A DNA stretch of 64,000 nt from a phage, in sequence record PZ445440.1; one strand, written 5' to 3'. A model generated the notes under the pieces. The model did not search any database and was not told the DNA's origin. It saw only the letters and a program-made list of their open reading frames with translations. Below are positions 47,475 to 48,412 of the stretch, in pieces. The number at the start of each line of letters is the position of its first letter. The stretch's first letter is position 1. The position numbers and the translations under genes are program-made.

Positions 47475-47501
47475 AAAAAGCCCCAACCGTAAGGAAGGGG
47501 C
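47475..47501 (-). terminator. rho-independent terminator (GCCCC...GGGGC hairpin + UUUUU) ending the tRNA/small-RNA unit
   Basis: read from sequence. Confidence 0.6.
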
Positions 47502-47504
47502 TAA

Positions 47505-47813
47505 GCCTTGCGGCAACCTTGTCGGGGTTCCACCTGCTAAGGCAAGTGTTTGTACGAAACGCCGGGATTTGAACCCGGTTATCAAGCAGTTGACGCTACT
47601 CAATATTTTTAAAAGGCCATATCTCGACCATATCCGAACGTTCCGTCAAAAACGCTACTCGGCTTACGGCAAAGATATTTCCTCGAATCGATAATTCTGT
47701 GCGCCGTTTCTGCTGTGATGTAAGGGGATATTAACAAATCATAAAGATTTATTAAGACCAGTCCTTACTCAGGGAACATCAGTCCGACGACTTGCCGGTA
47801 GCGACCCGGCTTC
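47505..47813 (-). ncRNA. non-coding structured region downstream of the tRNAs; possible stable small RNA(s) analogous to T4 species 1/2 RNAs; contains a tRNA-like T-arm (47561-47580)
   Basis: no ORF; CCGGGTTCAAATCCCGG T-arm-like element and several stems; between tRNAs and terminator. Confidence 0.3.
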
Positions 47814-48158
47814 TTATTTTGACATATCATCAATTTGTTCTCTACGTCTACGCCATAGATTAATTACTTCATCAACACATTCGGCGTTTGATATATGACG
47901 GCAATAATATAATGATTCGCGTTTCTGGAACCGATGTTGCAATGGGATTTCGTTTAAAAGGTCTTTACGGTCAAAGTATTCAAAACTAGTTAACCCGGAA
48001 CGGTTTTTAATGAACTTCCAATGTCCAAATTCATTTTGAACATAGATGTAATCGGCATGCTGATACAGCGAATTAATCAATCGATGAGAAATAACTGTAT
48101 CATATTCGTTAAAATAAAACGTTAAATCATGAACTACTAGATAAATATTGCCTTTCAT
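47814..48158 (-). CDS. hypothetical protein (115 aa)
   Basis: track ORF trimmed to ATG with SD GAGGAAAA; track start would overlap tRNA-Arg. Confidence 0.55.
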   Translation of the reverse strand: MKGNIYLVVHDLTFYFNEYDTVISHRLINSLYQHADYIYVQNEFGHWKFIKNRSGLTSFEYFDRKDLLNEIPLQHRFQKRESLYYCRHISNAECVDEVINLWRRRREQIDDMSK

Positions 48159-48176
48159 ATTTTCCTCACTTAAAGT

Positions 48177-48253
48177 TGGTCGAGACAGAAGGATTCTAAC
48201 CTTCAACCTACGGATTAGAAGTCCGTTGCTCTATACAATTGAGCTATGCCTCG
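48177..48253 (-). tRNA. tRNA-Arg (anticodon UCU), CCA encoded
   Basis: hand-folded cloverleaf: acceptor CGAGGCA/TGTCTCG, anticodon loop CTTCTAA, T-arm GAAGG-TTAGAAT-CCTTC. Confidence 0.8.
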
Positions 48254-48259
48254 AATATA

Positions 48260-48333
48260 TGACCCAGACCAGATTCGAACTGGTAACCTTTCCCTTATGA
48301 GGGGACTGCTGCTAACCATTGAGCTACAGGGCC
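48260..48333 (-). tRNA. tRNA with CAU anticodon (Met or lysidine-modified Ile)
   Basis: T-arm ACCAG-TTCGAAT-CTGGT, anticodon loop CTCATAA; acceptor has one mismatch, D-arm pairing weak. Confidence 0.55.
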
Positions 48334-48412
48334 TAAATAACTTTCTATTATGAAAGGCACTTTAGAGCACCTTTGGTAATAGAGGGTATGAATTAATAAT
48401 AACACATAATTC

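Follow-up and report, generated by a model that had tools for sequence, protein, structure and literature searches.

We analyzed a stretch of 64,000 nucleotides of phage DNA (PZ445440.1), hereafter called the window, with respect to the locus that contains its tRNA genes and, further downstream, about 340 nt without a credible open reading frame (ORF). The kilobase tested is 100% identical to Escherichia phage ChristianSchoenbein (Bas46, MZ501056.1; Straboviridae, Tevenvirinae, Mosigvirus). Every feature of the locus lies on the minus strand (table 1), the order being tRNA-CAU, tRNA-Arg(UCU), a 114-codon ORF, the ~340-nt segment and a gene starting at 47432. Between 47813 and 47475 (minus strand) there are only short mechanical ORFs, which in the ORF list measure 42-74 codons and occur on both strands of the non-coding stretch, and the GenBank record of the phage itself shows no CDS in this interval. 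A first-pass annotation of this DNA had described a non-coding region beside the tRNAs; the ORF-free stretch is confirmed, but it is not adjacent to them because the 114-codon ORF (48158..47814) sits in between. Judged by its sequence, the locus is the Mosigvirus version of the 'tRNA operon' of phage T4, and we hold with high confidence that it comprises a tRNA pair, rnaD and rnaC, with the folds proposed below.

The segment of ~340 nt is, on the evidence of alignment, the orthologue of T4 rnaD plus rnaC. T4 rnaC aligns end to end (nt 1-139) with 47691..47553 (97.1% identity, 139/139 nt, E 1e-66), and nt 1-118 of T4 rnaD align with 47817..47699 (85.8% identity, 118/119 nt, E 3e-33). Moreover, rnaD matches its family profile in nhmmer with E 2e-40, and the window rnaC scores 156 bits (E 9e-33) against covariance model R1. 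The T4 record lists 'rnaC small, stable RNA; species 1 RNA' and 'rnaD ... species 2 RNA' right after tRNA-Arg, and the records of phages RB3 and RB33 annotate the matching DNA as rnaD ('species II RNA') and rnaC. These identities and annotations bear out the earlier suggestion that the region may encode stable small RNAs like T4 species 1 and 2. In T4 itself, both RNAC and RNAD have been detected by RNA-seq and northern blot (PMC9697503).

Table 1. Features of the tRNA/rnaD/rnaC locus, in ascending window coordinates.
Feature	Coordinates	Strand	Basis
Intrinsic terminator, AGCCCCUUCC-UUAC-GGUUGGGGCU then U5	47475..47502	-	Fold; GC-rich hairpin
34-nt block AACACUUGCCUUAGCAGGUGGAACCCCGACAAGG between rnaC and terminator	47517..47550	-	Alignment of 19 distinct versions
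rnaC (T4 species 1 RNA orthologue)	47553..47691	-	97.1% identity to T4 rnaC
rnaC T-arm, CCGGG-UUCAAAU-CCCGG	47562..47578	-	Sequence; rnaC nt 114-130
rnaC loop 2, CGUCAA, nt 97-102, loop of 10-bp arm	47590..47595	-	Predicted kissing-loop half
rnaC loop 1, UUGACG, nt 43-48, tip of inserted hairpin	47644..47649	-	Predicted kissing-loop half
rnaD (T4 species 2 RNA orthologue)	47698..47817	-	85.8% identity to T4 rnaD
114-codon ORF (345 nt)	47814..48158	-	ORF list; CDS bas46_0242
tRNA-Arg(UCU), reads AGA, CCA encoded	48177..48253	-	ARAGORN tRNA-Arg(tct); Rfam RF00005 71.1 bits
tRNA-CAU (tRNA-Ile2 type)	48260..48333	-	ARAGORN tRNA(cat); Rfam RF00005 54.0 bits

T4 rnaC (T4s001, NC_000866 70908-71046) occupies the same place as its counterpart in the window, namely as the final gene of the tRNA cluster, ahead of its terminator, and has the same predicted fold. 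Four substitutions separate the two sequences: a change of G to A in the T-loop, U65C in arm 1, which keeps the pairing by turning G-U into G-C, and two changes in arm 2. T4 rnaD (T4s002, NC_000866 71053-71171) also lies directly upstream of rnaC and is almost identical to the window rnaD in its 5' 47 nt and 3' 25 nt, whereas the tip of the long hairpin differs and the 3' end is CACAG here versus CACCA in T4. In T4, RB3 and JS10, rnaD directly follows tRNA-Arg; in the window it follows an ORF, the AAGAAG leader being kept. Its membership of the family stands despite this intervening ORF, since adjacency to tRNA-Arg is a matter of synteny and not of identity. Rfam holds no family for rnaC or rnaD at either threshold, and the weak Rfam matches encountered (STnc50, isrK, YrlA and plastid untranslated regions) were dismissed as chance or as tRNAs read on the wrong strand.

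For the comparative analysis of rnaC we assembled homologues from GenBank phages, IMG/VR contigs and metagenomes, 21 distinct sequences in all (alignment A2). The GenBank sources are T4, RB3, Karamvirus KKP_3262 and KaAlpha, Kanagawavirus 305, Klebsiella phage kv_tblp8 and Enterobacter phages id4496 and MY742, and the whole set spans Tequatro-, Mosig-, Karam- and Kanagawavirus plus unclassified phages of Klebsiella and Enterobacter. The region is more structured than chance: rnaC folded alone reaches -49.3 kcal/mol (z = -3.75, with 0/200 shuffles as good) and rnaD -39.3 kcal/mol (z = -4.0). RNAalifold returns a four-way structure for the 21 rnaC sequences; of its 39 pairs, 23 show compensatory changes. 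When pairs are counted directly, 98.7% of the cells of the 39 nested pairs are paired, as against 37-47% when the partners are slid by 1-3 columns, and 24 pairs have changed on both sides; none of 500 shuffles attains the observed values.

The structure begins with an acceptor-like stem (nt 2-8 with 131-137) of five Watson-Crick pairs and two invariant U.U oppositions, which is 100% paired while switching from A4-U135 in seven homologues to G4-C135 in the other 14. Then follows an analogue of the D-stem, the 3 bp AGG/CCU (nt 9-11 with 76-78), and a long irregular hairpin of 60 nt (nt 14-73) is placed where a D-loop would be. An A/U linker of 8 nt leads from the D-stem analogue to a 10-bp arm (nt 87-112) in the position of the anticodon arm, and the 3' part of rnaC contains the T-arm, in which the middle pair G116-C128 is replaced by U-A or A-U in 11 of the 21 homologues. 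As modelled from these covariations, rnaC is shown to be a cloverleaf-like, tRNA-shaped RNA with a canonical T-arm and a hairpin inserted in the D-loop. The tRNA-like T-arm, which lies at 47578..47562 on the minus strand, had been spotted from the letters alone, together with the remark that no complete cloverleaf accompanied it. The latter holds for canonical tRNA models, since rnaC gives no RF00005 match at E up to 10 and ARAGORN makes no call at the window rnaC, but it fails in the broader sense because the RNA carrying that T-arm folds like a cloverleaf.

The departures from a canonical tRNA are several. In the anticodon position the stem has 10 bp instead of five and the loop 6 nt instead of a free 7 nt, and the 3' tail past the acceptor-like stem is U-ACAA in most homologues and U-CCAA in the kv_tblp8 clade. 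Model R1 aligns a genuine tRNA-Asn weakly, with the insert skipped (E ~0.03), while the search for a parent tRNA of rnaC among the real tRNAs in these loci found none, the best score lying within ~2 standard deviations of the mean.

The fold also suggests tertiary contacts. Loop 1, at the tip of the inserted hairpin, and loop 2, in the 10-bp arm, are perfectly complementary in 21/21 homologues, forming six pairs that are 100% paired. In the clade of kv_tblp8 and L012-L014 (L numbers are our own labels) the loops become UUGGCG/CGCCAA by a double compensating change, alignment pair 46-103 being A-U in 17 sequences and G-C in four; the related L024 keeps UUGACG/CGUCAA. The two loops very likely form a six-base-pair kissing-loop contact that would close rnaC on itself, and with the loop in the anticodon position so engaged the RNA would be unable to decode. 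In addition, the junction resembles a D-loop with an insertion, reading AGG, A12 N13, the 60-nt hairpin, G74 G75 and CCU, so arranged that A12/N13 and G74/G75 (the latter at 47618-47617) occupy the tRNA places A14/R15 and G18/G19. In the lineage of MY742, G74 has changed to C together with a change of T-loop U120 to G, the two positions being equivalents of G18 and psi55. Hence G74G75 may dock on the T-arm of rnaC in the way G18G19 does in tRNA.

For rnaD, 17 distinct sequences were aligned (alignment A3). The 5' 47 nt and the 3' 25 nt are almost invariant among them, whereas the tip of the long hairpin exists in at least three unrelated versions among relatives. The AAGAAG leader forms the 5' end and is followed by a hairpin (47810..47794) with the invariant loop GUCGCUA, and the long stem is closed by GUCGUCG/CGGCG-C-AC beneath its variable tip. 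With RNAalifold pairs, 97.3% of the cells are paired versus 33-51% after sliding, and six pairs covary, including columns 42/114, which are U-A in 10 sequences and A-U in six. The covariation thus gives moderate support to a model in which rnaD consists of a 5' hairpin and a long stem with a swappable tip; it is not tRNA-like. On the plus strand, the 5' hairpin of rnaD (47794-47810) followed by TTCTTATTTT scores as terminator-like, and such a site could stop antisense transcription arriving from the downstream side.

The 34-nt block downstream of rnaC hardly varies among Tequatro-, Mosig- and Dhakavirus, including phages without rnaC. As a third structured RNA, the 88-nt tail yields no significant fold (z = -1.9), and its invariant block gives no covariation. 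The strong terminator that had been noted at the end of the region is present as a GC-rich hairpin followed by U5 (47502..47475, minus strand), and its stem changes in a compensatory manner in relatives, from AGCCCC/GGGGCU to AGGCCC/GGGCCU. A simple terminator scanner did not list the hairpin at 47502..47475, probably because of its interior mismatches. A hairpin of the form AGCCCCUUCC-NNNN-GGUYGGGGCUUUUU is found twice in the window in almost the same version, at 30794-30821 and 47475-47502, both on the minus strand.

The 346-nt stretch matches ~810 phage records, mostly at 88-98% identity, and in every genome of the homologue set rnaC is located within a tRNA array or at its end. In phages of the Dhakavirus type (JS10, JS98 and relatives; L005, L033-L038), rnaD is joined directly to the tail and terminator and rnaC is cleanly absent, the set with rnaD only being formed by JS10 and six contigs. 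Conversely, phages of the Karam- and Kanagawavirus types have rnaC and no clear rnaD, and in Karamvirus rnaC is located in the middle of a 20-tRNA array, not at its 3' end. The two RNAs are thus separable modules. Both appear confined to T-even-like phages of enterobacteria, since pattern scans of bacterial genomes and metagenomes returned nothing beyond this group. The 120 matches in bacterial genomes were all due to chance (nhmmer E > 0.08), as were 83 of the 95 metagenome matches and the viral-contig matches L015, L027 and L159-L164; the other 12 metagenome matches are real and all of known types, so that the scan added no new covariation.

A distant rnaD-like element is present in Klebsiella phages of the kv_tblp8 type, right after tRNA-Asn (L009 201-345; L013 2272-2426, minus strand; L014 12764-12918, minus strand). 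It shares with rnaD the AAUAAGAAGC leader and the GUCGUCG...CGGCGC ends (nhmmer E 2e-6), while its 5' part is different, and it was left out of the rnaD model because its fold is not significant (z = +1.0).

The annotation of these elements in relatives is uneven. In MZ501056, in most related records and in Rfam, rnaC and rnaD are unannotated, and many other related records place a 'hypothetical protein' CDS over them. ARAGORN calls the 3' two-thirds of some rnaC homologues as tRNAs of 94-96 nt (L004 2547-2642, L006 845-939, L011 7816-7911, L026 980-1073), with inconsistent anticodons (Phe-gaa, Met-cat, Stop-tta), and OK210076 and PQ824230 carry calls of this origin as tRNA genes.

In T4, the tRNA cluster and the species II and species I RNAs are made as one primary transcript of ~1.75 kb, which terminates past the species I RNA gene (PMC2330249). 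By analogy, a single minus-strand transcript of the present locus would start just upstream of 48333 and end at the terminator 47502..47475, its cargo being tRNA-Ile2(CAU), tRNA-Arg(UCU), the 114-codon ORF, rnaD (species 2) and rnaC (species 1). Host tRNA-processing enzymes would, by the same analogy, excise rnaC and rnaD from this common precursor: RNase P, by recognizing the unit of acceptor stem and T-arm, would cut the 5' end of rnaC, and the same cut would make the 3' side of rnaD and so release it. Upstream of tRNA-Ile, the minus strand shows TGCTCT at 48369..48364 and, 11 nt on, CATAAT at 48352..48347; read by eye, these motifs (48347-48369) look like a T4 MotA-dependent middle promoter, at the place where the promoter of the T4 tRNA cluster reportedly lies. 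The exact late promoter TATAAATA is not found within 47400-48400. This consensus stands right past the terminator in L005, L017, L018, L021, L022, L028, L032-L035, L037 and L038; the corresponding positions of the window, 47462-47469 (minus strand), read AATAAATA and precede the gene that starts at 47432.

With respect to function, rnaC would keep the face of a tRNA that enzymes recognize but hide the loop in the anticodon position. Our guess is that it may act as a stable tRNA mimic which binds or titrates a factor recognizing the acceptor, T-arm or elbow of tRNAs, candidate targets being a host tRNA-directed nuclease or a tRNA-maturation enzyme. A role of this kind, with rnaC sequestering a tRNA-binding factor as a decoy or sponge, is a speculation to which we assign a low probability. 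The fuller scenario is likewise improbable as a whole: rnaC would be an exapted tRNA whose D-loop hairpin pairs with the former anticodon loop, thereby becoming a self-locked decoy against a host tRNA-targeting factor (for instance a defence nuclease), with rnaD as a second, independent host-range RNA. By a similar guess, rnaD might be a structured RNA that works independently of rnaC and influences growth in certain hosts. When the T4-like phage BW1 adapted to E. coli ECOR34, a single convergent single-nucleotide polymorphism (SNP) in the rnaD region appeared in three lines (PMC12685909), which is a hint of a host-specific role for rnaD.

An acceptor/T-arm unit on a larger RNA, as in rnaC, is also displayed by bacterial YrlA (Y-RNA-like), the tRNA-like domain of tmRNA and the 3' tRNA-like structures of plant viruses, and rnaC presumably shares with such non-decoding tRNA mimics the handling by tRNA enzymes. 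There is no similarity in sequence or model, the Rfam models of YrlA and tmRNA failing to match rnaC, and rnaC differs from the three families in having neither a Ro-binding stem nor a tag ORF and in not lying at a genome end. To our knowledge, the self-closing loop-loop contact has no counterpart in any of them.

Several points weigh against the explanation as a whole. Laboratory strains support the growth of T4 mutants in which the region is deleted. The 21 rnaC sequences amount to about six clades, and the shuffle statistics therefore overstate their independence; the covariation of the kissing loop and that of the elbow represent one lineage-level event each and are suggestive, not conclusive; most kissing-loop positions are invariant and uninformative either way. 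RNase P or the CCA-adding enzyme may fail to recognize rnaC, because the stem includes two U.U oppositions and the tail is, in most homologues, U-ACAA instead of N-CCA. The ORF between the tRNAs and rnaD complicates how the 5' end of rnaD is made, and we infer the production of both RNAs in Bas46 from the parallel with T4. Finally, published work assigns no role to RNAC or RNAD (PMC3014915, PMC9697503).

The most serious competitor, unlikely in our view though given slightly more weight than the decoy proposal, grants rnaC and rnaD no function in trans and regards them as stable cis-acting 3' structures that shield the tRNA-operon transcript from exonucleases and guide its maturation, and that accumulate through nuclease resistance. 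It can draw on the fact that both RNAs are always found within tRNA clusters or at them, immediately before the terminator, on their being part of the tRNA precursor in T4 (PMC2330249) and on 50 years without a function found. However, the stems vary across genera but the loops and single strands do not (in rnaD these are GUCGCUA and GGACUGA; in rnaC, UUGACG/CGUCAA and AAAAAU of the linker), a pattern that a mere stabiliser would not need. Each RNA moreover occurs alone, rnaD only in Dhakavirus and rnaC only in Karamvirus, mid-array, and the convergent SNP in the rnaD region arose during host adaptation. The phage under study has lost most of the tRNAs of T4 and RB3 yet keeps both RNAs; this retention and their separate occurrence elsewhere argue for selection in their own right.

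That the ~340 nt are decaying remnants, i.e. pseudogenes, of tRNA genes which T4 still has is highly improbable. A T-arm without canonical cloverleaf and the odd ARAGORN tRNAs of 94-96 nt (Phe, Met, Stop) on rnaC homologues would fit such decay, but the segment retains 86-97% identity to T4 next to genes that differ, 24 plus six base pairs have been kept through two-sided changes, the elements are retained in ~770-810 phage records including phages with eight or more tRNAs, and no real tRNA in these loci resembles rnaC with the insert removed. The earlier notion of a degenerate tRNA remnant is thus correct as to the tRNA architecture of rnaC and incorrect as to decay, which is refuted to a large degree by the strong structural selection that the covariation reveals.

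Hardly any credence attaches to the idea that rnaC functions as a chargeable tRNA containing an intron or long extra arm, the tRNA being formed by its 3' 93-96 nt. ARAGORN does report a tRNA-Phe(gaa) in KKP_3262, and nt 47-53 can pair perfectly with nt 131-137 in T4-type sequences. Yet the acceptor stem so formed shows zero compensatory changes and has three pairs broken in 12, seven and three of the 21 sequences, while the competing stem at the 5' end is 100% paired and includes the A4-U135/G4-C135 switch; the called anticodon varies among close relatives, and the Rfam tRNA model is blank there. Pair counts rule out the corresponding alternative fold, with the 3' 93 nt as a tRNA. Scarcely conceivable, too, is that the region encodes small proteins, as the mechanical ORFs of 42-74 codons on both strands and the 'hypothetical protein' CDS of many related records imply, given that substitutions follow the pattern of a paired RNA, indels of 1-4 nt are free among homologues, T4 rnaC and rnaD were identified as RNAs and the phage's own record has no CDS there.

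Turning to the tRNAs, ARAGORN and Rfam (RF00005, gathering score 29) agree on exactly two across the 64-kb window, the Arg-UCU and CAU species that had been pointed out in the first-pass annotation, which had also contrasted them with the eight of T4, a number in accord with the T4 record. When 47300-48500 was scanned sensitively against Rfam (E up to 10), neither a further tRNA nor any other credible family emerged, and thus none of the additional intact tRNAs that would have spoken against the first-pass annotation. The tRNA-CAU is identical to T4 tRNA-Ile at 73/74 positions, and MZ501056 annotates it as tRNA-Ile with ATA as the codon recognized. The gene does not include the 3' CCA, and between it and tRNA-Arg lie the 6 nt UAUAUU. 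As read from the sequence and the Rfam alignment, the acceptor stem has G1-C72, G2-U71, C3-G70, C4-G69 and C5-G68; its beginning, GGCCC, is also that of E. coli tRNA-Ile2, and C4-G69 and C5-G68 are reportedly TilS determinants which separate E. coli tRNA-Ile2 from tRNA-Met. E. coli tRNA-Ile2 (ileX/ileY) has the same CAU anticodon and is converted by TilS to read AUA; in comparison with it and with T4 tRNA-Ile, the modification and charging of the present tRNA are predicted from its sequence, and it lacks an encoded CCA.

These data support the assignment of the CAU tRNA as a tRNA-Ile2, which would decode AUA once host TilS adds lysidine, as had been proposed. It could instead be an ordinary methionine tRNA, elongator or initiator, and ARAGORN as well as most GenBank records of related phages do label it tRNA-Met. 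We judge this very unlikely in view of the near identity to T4 isoleucyl-tRNA and the tRNA-Ile/ATA annotation in the phage's own record, the presence of C4-G69 and C5-G68, the frequency of AUA in the window (11 per 1000) and the demonstration of lysidine on the tRNA(CAU) of a T4-like vibriophage (review PMC13191261).

Codon usage was counted in 95 ORFs of the window (18,424 codons, 37% GC): AGA is used at 7.2 per 1000 (16% of Arg codons) and AUA at 11.0 per 1000 (14% of Ile codons). In E. coli K-12 codon tables AGA stands at ~2 and AUA at ~4-5 per 1000, and the comparison called for earlier thus comes out several-fold higher for the phage. Going by these counts, the two tRNAs would top up the decoding of AUA and AGA, and the minimal set of Ile(CAU) and Arg(UCU) fits the usual explanation of codon supply. 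The tRNA-Arg(UCU) itself is identical at 62-64/77 positions to the tRNA-Arg of RB3 and JS10 and at just 44/77 to that of T4, which BLAST does not match to it; it is therefore of the RB3/JS10 lineage and not of T4's, indicating that isoacceptor genes have been swapped within the cluster.

The 114-codon ORF belongs to phrog_3355 (E 1.4e-49), a family annotated as of unknown function, and Pfam gives only a sub-threshold match to DUF2654. Its place is exactly that between tRNA-Arg with its CCA and rnaD with its AAGAAG leader, and the stop codon of the ORF (47816-47814) overlaps the first bases of rnaD. Since rnaD adjoins tRNA-Arg in T4, RB3 and JS10, the ORF seems to have been inserted into the tRNA operon with precision, in the manner of segB in T4.

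As a finding, the locus is ordinary, a well-known T4 region in a sequenced relative. The 'stable RNAs' of T4 were found in the 1970s and the region was described in that phage in the 1970s-80s; the locus is already known, as a straightforward orthologue of the T4 tRNA/species 1/species 2 region. A comparative structure for rnaC or rnaD was not encountered in the literature searched or in Rfam, and the architecture of rnaC as a tRNA with a D-loop insert, together with its covarying kissing loop, may represent new details. Of practical note is that gene callers put spurious 'hypothetical proteins', or odd tRNAs (Phe, Met, Stop), in the place of the missing rnaC and rnaD annotations. The reading of rnaC as a self-locked decoy, if true, would finally give the 'stable RNAs' of T4 a function, and the tRNA-shaped rnaC with its proposed loop-loop lock and possible D/T elbow, along with the modular rnaD, offers handles that make a 50-year-old question about orphan RNAs more testable.

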